This document shows positions 33,398 to 59,361 of a stretch of 64,000 nucleotides of DNA, piece after piece (positions within the stretch are counted from its first letter, which is position 1; the number at the start of each line of letters is the position of its first letter). The notes under the pieces were generated by a model that searched no databases, was not told the origin of the DNA, and saw nothing but the letters and a program-made list of their open reading frames with translations. A program made the translations under genes and the position numbers. The stretch is from Parcubacteria group bacterium Greene0416_39. GTDB lineage: Bacteria > Patescibacteriota > Minisyncoccia > Minisyncoccales > UBA10102. The stretch is taken from positions 8,692 through 72,691 of the forward strand of contig VMEU01000003.1 of the NCBI GenBank assembly GCA_007375675.1, written 5' to 3'.

Positions 33398-33420
33398 CTT
33401 TGTAATTGTGAGCGAATTGT

Positions 33421-33456
33421 GAGCGAAAAAGCGGGGTCTGTCCCCGCTTTTTCGCT
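33421..33456 (+). terminator. rho-independent terminator
   Basis: GAGCGAAAAAGCGGGG tctgt CCCCGCTTTTTCGCT. Confidence 0.7.
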
Positions 33457-33460
33457 ACAT

Positions 33461-33691
33461 ATGGAGATCGTCGAGGAGCAGGTCTCGCCGACCTGCACCG
33501 CCTGCCTCCCGGCTGACCAGGCGGGTCCGCCCGCAACCCAGGCCACCTTCCAGTGCCCAAACGGACACTTCAGTTACACCACCAAGTGCGGGATCTGTGG
33601 ACAGGAGTCCGCGGGGCTCTACACCTGGCACGGAGGTCCGTGCCAGTACTGCCCAAAGGAGGAAGGATTAGTGGCTGTAGAAAGCTACTAA
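33461..33691 (+). CDS. Cys-rich zinc-ribbon-like protein (76 aa)
   Basis: CTAC, CPNGH, CGIC, CQYC. No obvious RBS. Confidence 0.4.
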   Translation: MEIVEEQVSPTCTACLPADQAGPPATQATFQCPNGHFSYTTKCGICGQESAGLYTWHGGPCQYCPKEEGLVAVESY

Positions 33692-33745
33692 TTCTCCTGC
33701 TAACCGCCAAATGATCTGGCGGGATATAAAAAAGGTCTATAGAGA

Positions 33746-34620: not shown

Positions 34621-35364
34621 ATGCAGCGGAAACGCTGTTTTCTGTTTACTATGATAACCTTTGACGTCATCACAATCTTTCCAGAACTTGTTGAGGCCTT
34701 TGGGAAAGAGTCGTTGTTAAAACGCGCGCAAAAAAAGAAGTTACTGAAAATCCAAGCCCACGATCTCAGGAAATGGGCAAAAGATAAACACAAGACTGTG
34801 GACGATAAGCCTTTCGGCGGAGGATTGGGAATGGTTTTGCGAATTGAACCGATATACAAAGCGGTCACCGCTTTGAAATCCGAAGCACGAAATTCGAAAT
34901 CCGAAACAAATTCGAAATTCAAAAGCTCACAATCTAAAACGATACTATTCACTCCTCGGGGAAAAAAGTTCACGCAGAAAATGGCGTATGAGTTTTCAAA
35001 GTTCAACCAGCTCATTTTTATCTGCGGAAGATATGAGGGAGTAGACGAAAGAGTGGCAAAGCACATTGCAGACGAGGAGCTTTCAATTGGAGACTATGTT
35101 CTTATGGGAGGGGAGATCCCTGCAATGACGGTTATTGAGGCTGTAGCCCGCCTTATTCCAGGAGTGGTAGGCAAGCCAGCCTTCCTCAAAGAAAGGCTCA
35201 TAAAGGGCTCTGGGGGGCCTAAAAACGGGTTTATAGAGTATCCCCAGTATACCCGCCCTGAAACGTTTAAAGAGTGGAGGGTGCCAAGAGTTCTGGTTTC
35301 TGGAAACCATCAAAAAATAGGGGAGTGGAAAGCAAAACATGGACAAATTGTTGGCAAACAGTAA
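34621..35364 (+). CDS. trmD: tRNA (guanine37-N1)-methyltransferase TrmD
   Basis: MITFDVITIFPELV, GRYEGVDERV, GDYVLMGGE. GATAAT lies 6 nt before the ATG at 34621. An alternative start is the ATG at 34651. Confidence 0.9.
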   Translation: MQRKRCFLFTMITFDVITIFPELVEAFGKESLLKRAQKKKLLKIQAHDLRKWAKDKHKTVDDKPFGGGLGMVLRIEPIYKAVTALKSEARNSKSETNSKFKSSQSKTILFTPRGKKFTQKMAYEFSKFNQLIFICGRYEGVDERVAKHIADEELSIGDYVLMGGEIPAMTVIEAVARLIPGVVGKPAFLKERLIKGSGGPKNGFIEYPQYTRPETFKEWRVPRVLVSGNHQKIGEWKAKHGQIVGKQ

Positions 35365-35389
35365 AATCTATGCTACATATTTATGATAG

Positions 35390-35471
35390 GGGCGGTTCGT
35401 ATAGCGGCAATTACGCCACGCTGTAGACGTGGTGCCTTCGGGCTTCAGGGGTTCGAGTCCTCTACCGCCCA
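35390..35471 (+). tRNA. tRNA-Tyr (GUA), long variable arm
   Basis: GGGCGGT...CCACG CTGTAGA CGTGG TGCCTTCGGGCTTC AGGGG TTCGAGT CCTCT ACCGCCC A. Confidence 0.85.
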
Positions 35472-35489
35472 CAGTCGGGGTGATTTGAT

Positions 35490-35560
35490 GCCGAGGTAGC
35501 TCAATGGTAGAGCACGTCATTGGTAATGACGCGACAAGAGTTCAATTCTCTTTCTCGGCT
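35490..35560 (+). tRNA. tRNA-Thr (GGU)
   Basis: GCCGAGG TA GCTC AATGGTA GAGC A CGTCA TTGGTAA TGACG CGAC AAGAG TTCAATT CTCTT TCTCGGC T. Confidence 0.85.
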
Positions 35561-35572
35561 CATAATCAATAA

Positions 35573-35649
35573 TAATGCAAATTTACGTATGACTACGAAT
35601 GCCGCAAATAATATTTGTACATTCGCATATCATTTGTAGATTGGCATCA
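35573..35649. repeat. AT-rich palindromic intergenic cassette (copy G)
   Basis: TAATGCAAATTTACGTATGACTACGAATGCCGCAAATA...ACATTCGCATATCATTTGTAGATTGGCATCA. TTCGCA-17-CATCAT lies 6 nt before the rpmG ATG. Confidence 0.7.
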
Positions 35650-35656
35650 TAATTGT

Positions 35657-35833
35657 ATGGCAACAAAAAGAAAAGCGTATACAAGATTGCAGTGCACGGT
35701 GTGCAAGAATCTAAACTATTCCGCGCACAAGTCCAAGATGTCGAAGATGAAAGAAGGAGAAGGCAAATTGGCATTTAAAAAGTTCTGCAGGCACTGCAGA
35801 AAGCATACAAGCCACAAGGAGACAAAGAAGTAA
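35657..35833 (+). CDS. rpmG: 50S ribosomal protein L33
   Basis: MATKRKAYTRLQCTVCKNLNY...CRHCRKHTSHKETKK. Confidence 0.9.
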   Translation: MATKRKAYTRLQCTVCKNLNYSAHKSKMSKMKEGEGKLAFKKFCRHCRKHTSHKETKK

Positions 35834-35887
35834 GATCAAAAGGAATGTGTGAGGAATGTGTGAAGACCAGCTTCACACATTCAAGTT

Positions 35888-35961
35888 AGGGGTGTGGTGA
35901 AGTGGTATCACGAAGGTCTCCAAAACCTTCGTCGGAGGTTCGATTCCTCCCGCCCCTGCCA
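35888..35961 (+). tRNA. tRNA-Trp (CCA), CCA encoded
   Basis: AGGGGTG TG GTGA AGTGGTA TCAC G AAGGT CTCCAAA ACCTT CGTC GGAGG TTCGATT CCTCC CGCCCCT G CCA. Confidence 0.9.
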
Positions 35962-36100
35962 GGCACCATACGGCACCTGGCCAGATGCAAGACTGTATCT
36001 GGCCAGGCACAATTCTGCGCCTGGCTACGCCAATTGGCTTAGCCAGAAGCAGAATTGGGACTGTGGGAGGTGCCGACTGGTACCTCCCCAGTTTTTAGTT
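35962..36100. repeat. GC-rich hairpin array (left flank of the GIY-YIG gene)
   Basis: GGCACCATACGGCACCTGG. CTGGCCAGAT/ATCTGGCCAG. CAATTCTGC/GCAGAATTG enclosing CTGGCTA/TAGCCAG. GGGAGGT/ACCTCCC. Confidence 0.55.
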
Positions 36101-36112
36101 GATAATAAGGGA

Positions 36113-36373
36113 ATGAAATTCTACTACGTTTACGTTCTACGTAATAAACTTAAGAATTTTACTTATATTGGATACTCCGAGAATCTTCAGCAAAGGTTCC
36201 GCGAACATAATGAAGGTAAATCGAAATCTACAAAACATTACGTTCCTCTAGAACTTATTCACTATGAAGCATACAGAAACAGTAGAGACGCAAAGCGGCG
36301 AGAGGAGTATCTCAAAACAAATCGCGGCAGAACAACTTTGATGACAATGCTTAAGGAGTATTTTGCCAATTAA
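36113..36373 (+). CDS. GIY-YIG nuclease-family protein (86 aa)
   Basis: FYYVYVLRNKLKNFTYIGYSENLQQRFREHNEGKSKSTK...YLKT. The track ORF 35894.. reads through tRNA-Trp and is not accepted upstream of the ATG at 36113. Confidence 0.8.
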   Translation: MKFYYVYVLRNKLKNFTYIGYSENLQQRFREHNEGKSKSTKHYVPLELIHYEAYRNSRDAKRREEYLKTNRGRTTLMTMLKEYFAN

Positions 36374-36408
36374 AGAATCGCCAACAAGGCGAGTTTTTGA
36401 CAGGGATC

Positions 36409-36437
36409 TTGCAATTACGCAGGATTTTTGCTATCAT
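36409..36437 (+). promoter_or_regulatory. candidate promoter TTGCAA-17-TATCAT
   Basis: Upstream of ORF 36482. Confidence 0.5.
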
Positions 36438-36481
36438 AGTCCGGTGGGAGAGCAAAATTAGAGAAAGGAGGATCTAGTTCA

Positions 36482-36688
36482 ATGGGGGCAATTCTTCAGC
36501 CAGGTGATATTGTCGCCTCGCACATAACAATCCGGAATGGTCGCAATGGCAATGTAATTCGGGCAGGCACTTATGGTATCGTTGTCGACAGGCTGTCGCA
36601 GAAGATCGCAGTGCAATTCGAAAAGGGCGATAACGAGACCACCGAACCCCTCCTCTGTTTGCGTTCAAACCTCCGCCTTCTGTCCTAA
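36482..36688 (+). CDS. hypothetical protein (68 aa)
   Basis: AAAGGAGG before the ATG. Terminator GCACCG/CGGTGC followed by TTTTTT downstream. Confidence 0.5.
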   Translation: MGAILQPGDIVASHITIRNGRNGNVIRAGTYGIVVDRLSQKIAVQFEKGDNETTEPLLCLRSNLRLLS

Positions 36689-36699
36689 CCTATCCTAGT

Positions 36700-36921
36700 T
36701 CATAGGGTCTGGCACCGTACCCGACAACGGTGCTTTTTTATTCCACGTCTTTTCGGCAAAATAGAAAACGCCCTTCGACTTCGCTCAGGGCGTTTTCTTT
36801 CAATGAAATAAGGCGCAGCCAGGCACCATACGGCGCCTGGTCGGGTACAGAATTGTACCCGAAACTGTGCCTTACACAAGGTACCAGTCGGCACCTTGTA
36901 GTAGGGCACCGACTGGTGCCC
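36700..36921. repeat. GC-rich hairpin array (right flank of the GIY-YIG region)
   Basis: GAAAACGCCC/GGGCGTTTTC, CCAGGCACCATACGGCGCCTGG (same motif as 35962), CGGGTACA/TGTACCCG, TAGGGCACC/GGTGCCCTA. Confidence 0.5.
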
Positions 36922-37241
36922 TACACCATGTTGGAACCTGGAAGCGGCAAGCCGAGCTTTCCAAGGTTGCGCAAAATGGATCCTGCCAGGGCTACAACCA
37001 CAAGTATAAAGGCAACCGGCGCAAGGAAGGAAAGGGAAGGTTGAGCAGCAGCAGCCATTTGGACCACTGCAAATCCCAAAACATACCCTACCACCATTTT
37101 CTTCATAAAGTCTGCGGCTCTGCTCAAACGGAAGTCCTTTTTCATAAGCGCTCCAAGAACGCCGAGAATCACGTCAACTCCAACAAGAATCAAGATAATC
37201 TGTACTTGGGAGCTTGCAAAAAGTTCAGAAGATAGCGGCAT
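36921..37241 (-). CDS. small 3-TM membrane protein, holin-family-like
   Basis: ILILVGVDVILGVLGALMKKDFRLSRAADFMKKMVVGYVLGF resembles the phage holin family 4 pattern. Recalled similarity only. Confidence 0.45.
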   Translation of the reverse strand: MPLSSELFASSQVQIILILVGVDVILGVLGALMKKDFRLSRAADFMKKMVVGYVLGFAVVQMAAAAQPSLSFLAPVAFILVVVALAGSILRNLGKLGLPLPGSNMV

Positions 37242-37361
37242 TTGAAAGTATGATATAGTAAAGAAGTTATAAAAGAATGAATCTCCGACCTTTCAACCAG
37301 TATACCAAGAGCAAGCAAGAGAGGGAAGGAAGTTATCCACACCCCAAAATCACCCCGCCTT

Positions 37362-40050: not shown

Positions 40051-40890
40051 TCACTTAAACAGGAGGGAACCTAGCATCAAGACGGCGTAGAGCAACACAA
40101 CAAGAACGATTTTCTTTTTTGCAGAAAGCGGAAGAGAACGGAAAAAAGAAACCTGGAGAAACGCCTCCGGGTTTCTTTTTGGTTGCGTGAGAAGGGGAAG
40201 TTCTTCAATAACCCCAACAAACAAAACCCCAGCTACTTTATGAAGCTCTTTTTCTTTTTGCTTGAGAAGTTCTTGGTACTGCTTTTGTTCTTTGAGAAAC
40301 GCAAAATCTCGCAGAAGATCGCGCGACTCCAAAAATGAGGAGAGTTCATGGGTTGCTACTATGAGCTTATCTTGAGCAAAAAGCTTTCCCACAACTGCGC
40401 TTTCAAGAGTTTTATCCTTTGCAATGTTTACAAGCTGGTTTTTCCTAGCCAAAAACACTTGCGTATTGCCAGATTTTGCAAGAGAGAACGTAACCTTGTG
40501 AGCCCTCGGGAAAAAAGAGAACGCAACAAGAACAAGATGAAGGTTGCCGAGCCAGTCAACATTACCTTGTTTTTTTTCTTTTAGCAAGAAGCTATCAACT
40601 TCTCTAAGCGCTTTTTTAAAGACGATTTCTGGGGTCACAACACTTTTCCCTTGGGTTCGCCCCGTCATTCGACGGGGCGGGGAGTCGGATGACTCCCCGT
40701 ATTCCTCGCTCACAACATGCGCAATTGTATCAAGAAAGCTGGAGTTCTGGGGAAGGACATTGGAAAGCTCCCCAATGCCATACACATTGGTTGTAAAATC
40801 TTTTCCAACAAGAACTTTTTCAAATGAAAACGTTTTGAAAAACCGGTCTTTCTTTGCTTTGGGATTAAAATGAAACTCAAAGATTCGCAT
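40051..40890 (-). CDS. hypothetical protein with C-terminal TM anchor (279 aa)
   Basis: Long ORF. No family recognised. Confidence 0.55.
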   Translation of the reverse strand: MRIFEFHFNPKAKKDRFFKTFSFEKVLVGKDFTTNVYGIGELSNVLPQNSSFLDTIAHVVSEEYGESSDSPPRRMTGRTQGKSVVTPEIVFKKALREVDSFLLKEKKQGNVDWLGNLHLVLVAFSFFPRAHKVTFSLAKSGNTQVFLARKNQLVNIAKDKTLESAVVGKLFAQDKLIVATHELSSFLESRDLLRDFAFLKEQKQYQELLKQKEKELHKVAGVLFVGVIEELPLLTQPKRNPEAFLQVSFFRSLPLSAKKKIVLVVLLYAVLMLGSLLFK

Positions 40891-51845: not shown

Positions 51846-53003
51846 ATGGAACCTCTGGCTTCAAAAATTAGGCCCAAGAGCTTGAAAGAATTTGTGGGCC
51901 AAGAACATTTAGTAGGGGAAGGAAAACCTTTGAACATTGCGATTGCTCAAAAGCATCTGTTCTCATTTATCTTGTGGGGGCCGCCTGGTTCTGGGAAAAC
52001 AACTCTGGCAAGAATATATGCCAATAGTCTCAATGCAAAGCTCTATGCGCTTTCTGCTGTATCTGCCGGCAAGGCCGACATTAAGGCAATATTAGAAGAC
52101 AAGACAGAAGGCCAGCCAAAGGAGGGTGCAGTCCTGTACCCTCCAAAGCTTTTATTTCTTGACGAGATTCACAGGTTTAACAAGGCACAGCAAGATTTTC
52201 TTTTGCCGTATGTGGAAACCGGAGAAATTACTCTTGTAGGAGCTACAACCGAAAACCCAAGTTTTGAGGTTATTTCACCCCTGCTTTCAAGGTGCCGTGT
52301 TTTTGTGCTCAACGAACTCTCTGGCCAAGAGATGACAACAATCATTAAACATACAGGATTTAAGTTAGACAAAAAGGCAAACGACTGGCTTGTTGCAATG
52401 GCGAATGGAGACGCCAGGCAGGCTATTTCAATGCTTGAAAATACCAAAGAGCTGTATGGCACTATTACCCTCGCAACACTCAAAGATACGCTACAGGCAA
52501 AGTTTCTTCGCTATGACAAGAAAGGGGAGGAGCACTACAATACCATTTCGGCTTTTATTAAGAGCATGAGAGCTTCACAGCCCAATGCCGCCCTGTACTA
52601 CTTGGCGAGAATGATTGACGCAGGAGAAGATCCCAAGTTTATTGCAAGAAGAATGGTTATTTTTGCTTCAGAAGATATTGGACTTGCCCATCCCACAGCT
52701 CTTGTTGTTGCAAATGGGGTATTTCGAGCAGTGGAGATTATTGGACTCCCGGAGTGTGCCATAAACCTTGCGCATGGCGTGGCATATTTATGCGAATGCA
52801 AAAAAGACAGGAGTGCATATGACGCATATTTTAAGGCCGTAGATGATGTGAAAGAACATGGAAACCTGCCGGTTCCTTTAAAATTGAGAAATGCTCCCAC
52901 CAAGCTCATGGAAGAATTGGAGTACGGAAAGGATTACGAAAAATATACAGAAGAAGATTTATTGCCAGAAAAGTTAAAAGGAAAAAAGTATCTTTTTAAG
53001 TAA
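51846..53003 (+). CDS. rarA: replication-associated recombination protein RarA/MgsA
   Basis: [33 protein letters not shown], MgsA C-terminal domain. Confidence 0.92.
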
Positions 53004-58209: not shown

Positions 58210-59361
58210 CTAACTTTTGAGATACTCAAGGATGTACTGTGCAAGAGTTTTGGCGGCGGCGGGTTTTGCGAAACTTAAAGCGGCTTGAGACATCTTCTGG
58301 AGCTCTTGGGGATTGTGAAGCAGATACCTAAGTTTCTCCAGAAAAAAATGCGGGGTGAGGTTTGATTCCTCAAGCACAATTGCTGCTCCGGTTCTTGCAT
58401 ACTCATAGGCGTTCTCAAGTTGATGGCCTTGAGCGGATTCTGGAAGCGGAATCAAAATAGAGGGCTTTCCCAAAGCTGCAACTTCAAAAATGATTCCAGA
58501 CCCTGCCCTGCTCACAACAAAATCTGAAACTGCGTAGGCGTGCTTGAGTTCGTTTTCAGGAAGAAACGGCCTTGGATGATACAAAGCATCTTTTGGAGAT
58601 TTCATCACTACCTTTGCTTCGGCCACAACTTGGTCAAAGTTTTTCTCCCCTGTTTGGTGGATGATTTCGCATACATCCAAAGCATCGTTCAGAGCAAGCA
58701 AAAGCATATCGTTTATTCTTTGAGCTCCTTGAGACCCCCCAAGAACCAATAGAACGGGCTTGTCTCCTTTGGAGGGTACAGTACTGTACCCTCCTTTGAG
58801 CTTGAAAATTTCAGCAGCCTCTGCTTTTGAGCCTGCAAGTATTTCCTTGCGTATAGGGTTTCCTATCGCCATTGCCTTTTCTAAAGAAAGATTCTTTGTA
58901 CGAGGAAAAGAGGTAAAAAGTTTCAAGGCAAACGTTGCCCCAATTCTGTTGGCAAGGCCGGCAACCGAATCTGACTCATGCAAGAATATGGGTATTCGCA
59001 AAAGCCAGCCTGCAATGGTTGCGGGAAGCGCGCCGTATCCCCCTTTGGAAACGATAACGTCGGGAGCAAGGACAAAGAGTTTCCAGAACGCCTGCATAAT
59101 GCCAAAGGGCACAAAAAAGAAAAGATCAACAATATTTTGAAGAATTGCTTTTACTCCGCCGTATCTTCTCAGCTTTCCTGCCAGCACTTTTGACACCTTA
59201 ATCCCCTCTTGAGAAAGGAACATTGTTCCAAAGTCATCTTGCGGGCCAAGGTAAAAAAATTCCACGTCTTTACTCCCGGAGATTTTACGTATCTCCCTTG
59301 CAATTGCGACAATGGGCAAAATGTGCCCGCCTGTTCCGCCCCCTGTAAACAAAATCTTCAT
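58210..59361 (-). CDS. murG: UDP-GlcNAc:lipid I GlcNAc transferase MurG
   Basis: MKILFTGGGTGGHILP... Confidence 0.93.
   Translation of the reverse strand: MKILFTGGGTGGHILPIVAIAREIRKISGSKDVEFFYLGPQDDFGTMFLSQEGIKVSKVLAGKLRRYGGVKAILQNIVDLFFFVPFGIMQAFWKLFVLAPDVIVSKGGYGALPATIAGWLLRIPIFLHESDSVAGLANRIGATFALKLFTSFPRTKNLSLEKAMAIGNPIRKEILAGSKAEAAEIFKLKGGYSTVPSKGDKPVLLVLGGSQGAQRINDMLLLALNDALDVCEIIHQTGEKNFDQVVAEAKVVMKSPKDALYHPRPFLPENELKHAYAVSDFVVSRAGSGIIFEVAALGKPSILIPLPESAQGHQLENAYEYARTGAAIVLEESNLTPHFFLEKLRYLLHNPQELQKMSQAALSFAKPAAAKTLAQYILEYLKS

Follow-up and report, generated by a model that had tools for sequence, protein, structure and literature searches.

Within the 64-kb stretch analysed here (contig VMEU01000003.1 of the Parcubacteria group bacterium Greene0416_39, hereafter the window), a gene for a stand-alone GIY-YIG nuclease of 86 amino acids (36113-36373, plus strand) follows tRNA-Trp (35888-35961, plus strand), with an array of GC-rich hairpins between the two. 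Based on a comparison with related loci, we lean towards the reading that this locus is a homing-endonuclease-like selfish cassette of about 0.4 kb, which targets tRNA 3' ends, is spread across Patescibacteria and would represent a chromosomal analogue of SegB, an endonuclease of phages. The footprints behind this reading were observed, namely the position at tRNA genes, direct repeats of tRNA ends, an empty site, and serial as well as decayed copies. A mobile or homing GIY-YIG cassette at a tRNA-proximal site had already been proposed in an earlier sequence-only reading of the window, and eight tRNA species as hosts, empty syntenic sites and tRNA 3' repeats at 6/59 loci now speak for this proposal at the level of sequence comparison.

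GIY-YIG homing endonucleases, the targeting of tRNA genes by SegB, tRNA 3' ends as insertion sites and nuclease-associated palindromic repeats are all established. Our search of the literature and of Rfam returned no description of a GIY-YIG gene of the minimal Slx1/UPF0213 type that lies directly 3' of tRNAs across Patescibacteria and is obligately linked to a structured leader, and likewise none of 22-nucleotide (nt) hairpin insertions with CNNNG duplications.

Association of the cassette with tRNA 3' ends

The sample comprised 80 genome loci and several metagenome loci (single loci are given as L numbers) with 83 genes of the family. Of these genes, 59 begin 70-230 nt downstream of a tRNA gene in the same orientation; taking approximately one tRNA per 20 kb in such genomes, we estimate chance adjacency at less than 1%. 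The host tRNAs cover eight identities: Trp, Gln (two anticodons), Met, Asn, Arg (two anticodons), Glu, Tyr and Asp. For most of the 24 genes without a called tRNA, a tRNA 3' end still precedes the leader, and in many of these cases a degenerate 3' fragment such as GGTTCTAACGTCGTTCACTAGCCCCTG is found, and the complete tRNA of that type lies 1-3 kb farther upstream. Two copies, each behind a different tRNA, were seen in at least six genomes. The identical architecture of leader plus gene, and even identical 22-mers, recur in different candidate phyla.

At four loci (L022, L034, L037 and L063; region about 100-250 nt upstream of the leader), ARAGORN called no tRNA, although a T-arm and an acceptor end can be recognised. 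Upstream of them we found P7 elements resembling those of group I introns (..GTAGAGACTATATACCCGA...GATGAGATAGTCCA..), which suggests that the tRNA genes concerned may carry a group-I-like intron. In L037 and L063, family hairpins lie inside this putative intron. A gene for another type of homing nuclease, a LAGLIDADG endonuclease, was seen in a Nealsonbacteria locus (L009, 1471-1908) about 3 kb upstream of the GIY-YIG cassette.

Comparison of syntenic tRNA-Trp loci revealed relatives without the cassette. In L092, L093 and L098, tRNA-Trp is directly followed by a membrane open reading frame (ORF) of 115 amino acids, with neither the GIY-YIG gene nor the hairpins, in the gene order tRNA-Tyr, tRNA-Thr, rpmG, tRNA-Trp ... 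holin, def, (methyltransferase), yceG, rplJ, rplL. In L006, the cassette sits behind tRNA-Trp as it does in the window. Presence and absence at a conserved site are thus observed, with the restriction that the relatives lacking the cassette are distant (holin 63% identical), so that loss is possible as well. The same comparison corrects the earlier view that the block occupies the place of a missing secE-nusG pair: in relatives without the block, tRNA-Trp is likewise followed by the holin-like gene, def, yceG and rplJ. Displacement of secE-nusG by the block was therefore rejected, as the cassette-free relatives do not carry those genes at this place either.

At 6/59 loci (L081, L091, L082, L026, L080 and L054), a direct repeat of the tRNA 3' end, 15-30 nt long and covering T-arm and acceptor 3' strand, occurs within a few bases of the stop codon of the nuclease gene (each p <= 1/300 against shuffles). 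In L081, the repeat comprises 21 nt without mismatch (TTCGATTCCCTCCAGGGTCGC), and the duplicated target begins in the T-arm (TTCGATTCC...). This arrangement resembles integrase-borne tRNA islands, which insert at the 3' part of a tRNA, regenerate the tRNA and leave the displaced 3' fragment as a direct repeat. Unlike these islands, the unit described here measures only about 0.4 kb and has no recombinase gene in the gene lists of the inspected loci. Specifically, neither a tyrosine nor a serine recombinase was found beside the cassette in these gene lists or in the segments between tRNA and displaced fragment, a search that covered part of the 80 loci.

Several loci have a layout that suggests more than one round of such events. 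In L058 (1782-2063), L067 (1304-1597), L070 (approximately 942-1199) and L019 (3542-3847), a second, divergent GIY-YIG gene (35-46% identical) lies between the intact tRNA and the displaced fragment with its leader and gene, which is the layout that serial insertion at the same tRNA would leave. This second subfamily directly follows tRNA-Tyr or tRNA-Asn and has its own two-hairpin leader of different sequence; the small GIY-YIG genes of these bacteria may thus quite generally be placed at tRNA 3' ends. Decayed remnants were found as solo leaders and as arrays of P1-type hairpins (the first hairpin of the leader, see below) only. One such array is located at 2240-2340 of L057, where three tandem P1-type hairpins with CTTTG spacers and a period of 27 (22 + 5) are preceded by a tRNA-Trp-like 3' fragment and followed by no GIY-YIG gene. 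It looks like repeated hairpin insertion at a duplicated target.

A conserved leader and a family of 22-nt hairpins

The GIY-YIG gene is fused to a conserved, structured leader of about 80 nt. For its detection, we built a covariance model from which the window sequence was left out. The model recovers the leader of the window at full length (36000-36089, plus strand; 78.2 bits, E 2e-17) and, in 74/78 genome loci, locates a complete leader on the plus strand immediately upstream of the ATG; solo full-length leaders amount to only two in 600 kb, and cassette-free relatives gave zero leaders with this model. Downstream of the stop codon, the sequences of different loci are unrelated except for occasional family hairpins, and a conserved 3' end of the cassette was sought there and not found. 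Since the leader is coupled to the ORF and the sequence after the stop codon is not conserved, we define the unit as leader plus ORF of about 0.4 kb. This replaces the block of 0.9 kb that the sequence-only reading had taken as the unit, which also included an orphan open reading frame (ORFan), found in this genome alone, with a promoter-like site and a terminator of its own.

The order of elements in the leader is fixed: hairpin P1 from the first base after the tRNA, a palindromic linker (CTTCGCCAGAAG-like), a segment a'' complementary to the central part of P1, a box reading GAC(C)GCAG or GGACTGAG, and hairpin P2, which ends 5-60 nt before the ATG. In the window, these elements correspond to P1 at 36002-36025 (inverted polarity, with an A.C mismatch), the small palindrome at 36025-36042, a'' (GCAGAATTGGGAC) at 36049-36061, complementary to the loop region of P1, and P2 at 36065-36088 with a G.T wobble, followed by TTTTT at 36092-36096.

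Covariation supports the structure. In P1 and P2, 92.9% of cells are paired and 13/18 pairs show compensatory changes, which none of 500 shuffles matched. The long-range helix between P1 and a'' covaries with the P1 loop (pair 12-60, CG:11/AU:10; pair 17-55, UA:8/GC:7). A first permutation of the complementarity between P1 loop and linker gave no information, since an inverted copy of P1 is present in the form of P2; with P2 left out, 0/5000 permutations reached the observed value. The leader is better conserved than synonymous sites. In a scan of 35300-37300 against Rfam 15 (E <= 10), the tRNAs alone passed, and the next-best models, of miRNAs, reached 30 bits against a threshold of 98.

These data bear directly on the idea that the hairpins are mere strong terminators or stabilisers of mRNA, with shared motifs due to chance or local duplication. 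Such elements do exist at the locus: P2 of the window is followed by TTTTT, and genuine terminators are found at 36378, 36711 and 36763. However, P2 with a T-run was seen only in the window and a few relatives (L029, L048), and most leaders of the family end 5-15 nt before the ATG without one. Moreover, the same architecture and identical 22-mers in different candidate phyla, a motif count of 11 against 0.13 expected, and the covariation of the structure leave next to no probability for this explanation. Covariation and conservation exclude in particular the hairpins as terminators shared by chance, which the sequence-only reading had kept as a possibility.

It has also to be considered whether the nuclease works together with the leader RNA, which would go beyond a mere expression element and, as a guide, scaffold or antitoxin-like molecule, provide the target specificity that the protein lacks. 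In favour of this, the protein has no DNA-binding domain, and the leader is obligately linked to the gene, exceeds synonymous sites in conservation and matches no Rfam family. We nevertheless regard this as highly improbable: no variable, guide-like segment matching tRNAs or other targets was seen, the variable linker is complementary to P1 of the leader itself, the polarity of P1 points to the antisense strand or to DNA, and RNA-guided GIY-YIG enzymes are, to our knowledge, without precedent.

This polarity follows from the wobble pairs. At P2, G.U occurs on the coding strand (AU:14/GU:12 at one pair), whereas P1 shows 32 A.C versus 1 G.U on the coding strand, i.e. G.U on the opposite strand. 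The opposite polarity identifies P1 and P2 as inverted copies of one hairpin type, and all hairpins share the core GGYRC(A/C)-N4-(T/G)GYRCC. Of the 11 matches to this core in the window, eight lie at the locus, two are family hairpins within genes and one (21925) does not belong to the family. Across 640 kb of related loci, 143/162 family hairpins are located no more than 250 nt upstream of a GIY-YIG start, and about 19 lie outside leaders.

The hairpins outside leaders bear marks of insertion. Exact 5-nt flanking direct repeats were found at 18/295 hairpins, compared to 2.5 expected, and 17 of these 18 repeats have the form CNNNG (CAAAG, CTTCG, CGAAG, CGCAG, CACAG, CGTAG, CACCG). In the register used for repeat detection, the two outer bases of a repeat are complementary by construction, whereas their identity as C and G is not imposed. 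Insertion sites comprise the CTTCG and CGCAG boxes of the conserved leader, the loops of other hairpins (L057, L020, L090, L072) and the 3' end of the GIY-YIG gene itself, where displaced TMLKEYF codons are left behind. For one hairpin subfamily, the metagenome collection of the Joint Genome Institute (JGI) contains only 11 stretches, and three of its seven independent sites there have no flanking duplication, so that duplication is frequent and not universal.

Two insertions in the window are in frame within genes, each with a 22-nt hairpin plus a 5-nt duplication that adds 27 nt. The first, CAAAG-GAGGGTGCAGTCCTGTACCCTC-CAAAG, is located in a rarA/mgsA-like gene (52117-52148, plus strand) and falls at a gap in the alignment with RarA of Escherichia coli. 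The second, CAAAG-GAGGGTACAGTACTGTACCCTC-CAAAG on the coding strand, is located in a murG-like gene (58767-58798, minus strand) and falls at a 13-residue gap in the alignment with MurG of Pseudomonas aeruginosa; its 22-mer is identical to one in a Woesebacteria leader (L034), there flanked by CTTCG. Another in-frame palindromic insertion may be present at 40658-40699, where two abutting perfect 22-nt hairpins of another sequence type, CGCCCCGTCATTCGACGGGGCG and CGGGGAGTCGGATGACTCCCCG, lie inside a minus-strand ORF of 279 amino acids (40051-40890, no Pfam match), approximately 230 nt upstream of tRNA-Val.

A repeat family of this kind invites comparison with repetitive extragenic palindromes (REPs, REPINs) and the REP-associated tyrosine transposases (RAYTs). 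Both systems involve short GC-rich, imperfect, strand-polar palindromes, which cluster in either orientation near the gene for a small nuclease that presumably moves them. In a corresponding interpretation of our locus, the 22-nt hairpins would be the primary, non-autonomous mobile elements, the GIY-YIG protein a dedicated and possibly domesticated transposase, and the position at tRNAs secondary. Intrinsic strand polarity of the hairpin family, hairpins of both orientations on both sides of the nuclease gene in the window, 5-nt CNNNG duplications with insertion into hairpin loops and genes, and the closest relatives of the array-A hairpins being found in array B only 0.8 kb away, suggesting local copying, fit this interpretation, as does the fact that the structural neighbour Slx1 cuts branched and stem-loop DNA (PMC6902002). 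Yet RAYTs are HUH/Y1 enzymes and REPs are extragenic with hundreds of copies per genome, whereas here the protein is a GIY-YIG nuclease without any HUH/Y1 transposase, and the hairpins are 22 nt long, low in copy number, concentrated at the nuclease gene, associated with CNNNG duplications and sometimes located inside genes. Two dispersed hairpins in 64 kb, about 19/162 outside leaders in 640 kb and 11 JGI stretches for one subfamily do not resemble a REP population; in addition, the leader is a fixed architecture tied to the ORF and not a variable cluster, and the exact abutment to the tRNA 3' end and the tRNA-end repeats would remain unexplained. We therefore consider it quite unlikely that the hairpins are the primary element. 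From the REP-like system with a nuclease partner that the sequence-only reading had offered as an alternative, a repeat family inserting with target duplications is retained, while its low copy number and its concentration at GIY-YIG genes depart from a REP system.

The GIY-YIG protein and a possible mode of spread

The nuclease matches PF01541 over residues 4-73 (E 9.2e-17; 61.6 bits, cut-off 22.6). Across 26 aligned members, Y5, Y7, Y18, (I) G20, R28, H32, N33 and E52 are invariant and would, by analogy, provide the catalytic residues (GIY/YIG tyrosines, arginine, histidine/tyrosine and the metal-binding glutamate). The AlphaFold2 model has a predicted local distance difference test (pLDDT) value of 93.4 and the topology E-E-H-E-H-H, an alpha/beta fold in which helices flank a sheet of three strands; the best Foldseek matches are the UPF0213 protein BH0048 (1zg2) and Slx1 (6seh), both with a probability of 1.00 and template modelling (TM) scores of 0.56-0.71. 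At the sequence level, 1zg2 is matched with E 1e-3, identity to UPF0213-type proteins reaches only about 29%, and weak matches exist to TIGR01453 and to PDB 1mk0, the GIY-YIG core of I-TevI type. Together, the invariant catalytic residues and the Slx1/UPF0213 fold match make the nuclease look intact.

Relatives are widespread. Protein searches returned 588 clusters at E <= 1e-5 and 403 matches among species representatives; several hundred of the relatives are close (65-88% identical), and the lineages include Nealson-, Pace-, Gottesman-, Levy-, Woese-, Roizman-, Curtiss- and Saccharibacteria, among others. The 64-kb window carries one copy. Compared to L006, the GIY-YIG protein is 85% identical, while the neighbouring gene products reach 64% (TrmD), 53% (L10), 75% (L12), 64% (Def) and 44% (YceG). 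Since third codon positions are near saturation (0.39-0.67 identity), the conservation of the protein reflects purifying selection and not recent transfer, which is ruled out as the cause of the high identity. Metagenomic contigs that carry the GIY-YIG gene or its holin neighbour mostly measure just 0.5-3 kb, which suggests that short-read assembly is interrupted here by the hairpin arrays or by cassettes present in several copies.

A number of observations weigh against a selfish homing element. Strong long-term purifying selection, as seen on the gene, is not what one usually finds for an endonuclease that is purely selfish, and it agrees with a host function. According to the Pfam scan and the AlphaFold2 model, the 86 amino acids form a single GIY-YIG domain, with no separate DNA-binding domain such as the one from which known homing endonucleases derive their specificity, and the modelled structure places the protein in the Slx1/UPF0213 branch rather than the I-TevI/Seg branch. 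A tblastn search of phage genomes gave one weak match only and no evidence for a phage vector. Neither the window nor L006 has a detectable tRNA 3' repeat after the gene (10/18 matches, p 0.93), and only 6/59 loci show one. A tree of the 86-amino-acid proteins, built by the unweighted pair group method with arithmetic mean (UPGMA), groups them only partially by tRNA type and does not allow vertical and horizontal descent to be told apart; the partial clustering speaks for long residence at a given tRNA. Finally, every mechanistic step, cleavage and mobility included, is read from footprints.

These points raise the question of whether the protein is a housekeeping nuclease of the UPF0213/YhbQ/Slx1 type, active in DNA repair or in tRNA/RNA metabolism and placed in tRNA operons for expression. 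The leader would then be a cis-regulatory or processing RNA, and the distribution would result from vertical inheritance with occasional duplication and loss. Besides the long-lasting purifying selection, this explanation draws support from catalytic residues that are intact in 26/26 aligned members, the partial clustering by tRNA type, the single copy in the 64-kb window, and covariation-backed leader helices with P2 G.U wobbles on the coding strand. It is also in line with the work of Dunin-Horkawicz et al., who described stand-alone Slx1-like proteins as a minimal and possibly ancestral form, noted the fusion of a prokaryotic Slx1-like domain with a tRNA methyltransferase of TrmH type and proposed an involvement in RNA metabolism (PMC1564403). 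Against a host function stand the eight different tRNA hosts with two copies per genome behind different tRNAs, the syntenic relatives without the cassette, the bracketing of the module by tRNA 3' direct repeats, the solo and decayed leaders and serial arrays, and hairpins inserted even in the 3' end of the gene itself. Likewise, the P1 wobbles on the antisense strand (32 A.C vs 1 G.U) are unexplained by a plain mRNA leader. On balance, a host housekeeping role appears unlikely to us.

Under the homing reading that we favour, the following sequence of events can be outlined. A promoter scan detected no promoter-like site from the tRNA to the ATG in the window, and transcription would occur by read-through from the tRNA. 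Processing of the tRNA 3' end would free the leader, in which P1 competes with the long-range helix and P2 abuts the start codon; both could limit or tune translation. By analogy with SegB, the nuclease would cut cassette-free tRNA genes in or near the DNA coding for the T-arm, and recombinational repair from a cassette-bearing copy would install a replacement tRNA 3' end together with leader and gene. The old tRNA 3' end would stay as a direct repeat after the stop codon, where such footprints are indeed seen. As a side effect or second activity, which the GIY-YIG enzyme might itself carry out, 22-nt hairpins of the leader family would be pasted into CNNNG sites with 5-nt duplications; the footprints of these events lie mostly beside the nuclease gene, in hairpin loops and occasionally in frame in genes. 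On this reading, the cassette of the window is an old one, whose 3' repeat is no longer detectable, and the space before the next conserved gene has come to be filled by the ORFan, terminators and another hairpin pile.

The likeness to SegB concerns both gene and target. SegB, a phage-encoded GIY-YIG homing endonuclease, makes its cut within tRNA genes at RAWTSGAAC, whose reverse complement GTTCSAWTY is the sequence of the T-loop, and its homologues are enriched within 1 kb of tRNAs in phages (PMC13096335). The tRNA gene cluster of phages T4/T6 with SegB and the loci described here have in common a free-standing GIY-YIG gene beside tRNA genes, and the target in L081 starts in the T-arm. SegB, however, has a C-terminal DNA-binding region, whereas here only an 86-amino-acid catalytic domain exists, which is nearer to Slx1/UPF0213 and encoded on the chromosomes of Patescibacteria. 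A further difference is the conserved hairpin leader, which is always present and always co-oriented directly 3' of the tRNA, and no phage relatives were found.

The second analogy concerns I-TevI, with which the protein shares the GIY-YIG catalytic core. The nuclease domain of I-TevI cleaves at CNNNG (PMC4065259, PMC12663268), the very sequence that is duplicated around the hairpin insertions. In contrast to I-TevI, the system described here has no intron, linker or DNA-binding domain and belongs to a different clade of the superfamily, and the 2-nt overhang of I-TevI would not alone yield a duplication of 5 nt. Because the window protein is located in another branch of the GIY-YIG superfamily, the CNNNG match is to be taken as a lead and not as proof; membership in the Slx1/UPF0213 branch means that the CNNNG and SegB analogies both cross clades. 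Within its own branch, the Slx1-like/UPF0213 proteins (YhbQ, BH0048, EF2693) provide the best matches in sequence and structure and share the minimal domain of about 90 amino acids. Slx1 is a structure-selective endonuclease which cuts branched DNA (PMC6902002). Different from the present family, these proteins are treated as cellular, with a function that is unknown or lies in repair, and our literature search found no report of tRNA-3' placement, a structured leader or hairpin repeats for them.

Parallels also exist in organelles. Mobile GC clusters and double-hairpin elements of mitochondria are short mobile hairpins in compact genomes, like the hairpins of this study. In Allomyces, a free-standing GIY-YIG ORF inserts at the 3' terminus of a conserved gene, atp6, and supplies it with a substitute 3' end, as the cassette would do with tRNAs. 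The mitochondrial elements differ in being organellar, in targeting protein genes, and in the sequences and sizes of their hairpins.

More tentatively, the Slx1-like 86-amino-acid nuclease may drive a hitherto undescribed two-tier mobile system that combines homing of the cassette into the T-arm-coding DNA of many different tRNA genes with pasting of hairpins into CNNNG sites under 5-bp duplication; we think of this as possible rather than probable. If true, the 22-nt hairpins would be the smallest transposable units known in bacteria, able to land in frame in essential genes, and the leader hairpins would act as substrates at the DNA level (cruciform or hairpin) and not only as an mRNA leader. 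CNNNG hairpin insertions, if made by the GIY-YIG enzyme, would also offer a new and experimentally tractable minimal cut-and-paste or copy-in reaction, and a minimal nuclease domain with a short motif preference might be of interest for nuclease engineering.

The homing reading itself would give a function and a life-style to one of the most common annotations in Patescibacteria, the "GIY-YIG nuclease family protein", and would explain assembly breaks at these loci. It would mean that the strategy of SegB, in which a GIY-YIG nuclease targets the universally conserved T-loop, is found on cellular chromosomes as well as in phages, which would account for tRNA 3' flanks as hot spots of gene turnover in integrase-poor genomes. 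The leader is a new conserved structured element that can be used for annotating genomes of Patescibacteria.

Organisation of the locus in the window

The sequence-only reading had listed tRNA-Trp, a hairpin array, the 86-amino-acid GIY-YIG gene, an ORFan led by a Shine-Dalgarno sequence and a second array sharing motifs with the first, and all of these are present. Upstream of tRNA-Trp (ARAGORN; 65.3 bits with the Rfam tRNA model) lie trmD, tRNA-Tyr, tRNA-Thr and rpmG. The encoded CCA of tRNA-Trp overlaps the first hairpin of array A (35958-36095, plus strand; -91.9 kcal/mol, z = -10.4 against shuffles), so that the cassette abuts the tRNA 3' end. Instead of four perfect hairpins, as previously described, array A contains five or six, three of them with A.C or G.T mismatches. 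Its first two members, H1 (GCCAGGCACCATACGGCACCTGGC) and H2 (GCCAGATGCAAGACTGTATCTGGC), are extra P1-like 22-nt hairpins placed in tandem before the canonical leader (35958-36003, plus strand; period 22).

Downstream of the nuclease gene, a terminator scan found a weak intrinsic terminator (36378-36399, plus strand), consisting of TCGCCAACAAGGCGA followed by GTTTTTG; the element AATCGCCAA...GGCG...TTTTT also occurs 3' of the GIY-YIG gene in L006 and L014. The ORFan unit (36409-36688, plus strand) lies outside the conserved cassette and comprises a promoter-like site (TTGCAA-17-TATCAT, 36409-36437), the Shine-Dalgarno sequence AAGGAGG (36465-36471) and an ORF of 68 amino acids (36482-36688), whose sole match among 5.8 billion proteins is itself, annotated as Parcubacteria group bacterium Greene0714_21. 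In L006, an unrelated, cysteine-rich ORF of 57 amino acids is found at this position. The ORFan is served by terminator T1 with its T-run (36711-36734), and the minus-strand holin-like gene by the bidirectional terminator T2 (36763-36798), which is kept in L006. The segment 36700-36800, formerly counted as part of a hairpin array reaching from 36700 to 36921, thus consists of these two ordinary terminators and not of family hairpins.

Array B proper (36811-36924; z = -10 against shuffles) is a pile of family hairpins without a linker. Its outer hairpin, AAGGCGCAG...CTGTGCCTT (36811-36875), holds H7 (36818-36841, inverted polarity) and H8 (36841-36862) in its loop, and is followed by H9 (36876-36899, inverted), of which 18 nt are exactly reverse-complementary to P2 (36068-36085 against 36879-36896), and by H10 (36901-36924) as the last hairpin. 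H1 of array A and H7 of array B differ at a single nucleotide. Arrays A and B flank the nuclease gene, and hairpins of both polarities occur on each side. Array B was rejected as a second complete leader, because the covariance model scores its hairpin parts (38 and 36 bits) and deletes the linker; its hairpins belong to the same family but form a pile of their own rather than the "right end" of a unit.

The two motifs reported as shared between the arrays are real and, within the window, confined to the tRNA-Trp/GIY-YIG locus, although their coordinates had been given 2-8 nt off. Motif 1 (CAGGCACCATACGGCRCCTGG) occurs at 35960 and 36820 with an expectation of 0, and motif 2 (GYRCCGACTGGTRC) at 36070, 36881 (minus strand) and 36906 with an expectation of 0.01. 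Array B runs up to the stop codon of the minus-strand gene for a holin-family membrane protein (36921-37241; PF05105, E 5.6e-9). Orthologues of this gene are found in syntenic relatives with and without the cassette and mark the far side of the variable region.

Elsewhere in the window, the stretch 33419-33700 is GC-rich and contains a terminator-like, bidirectional palindrome of 15 bp (33422-33456) as well as a hairpin of 9 bp (33625-33646). It lies in and around a cysteine-rich ORF of 90 amino acids, between a gene with a KH domain and two minus-strand coiled-coil ORFs.

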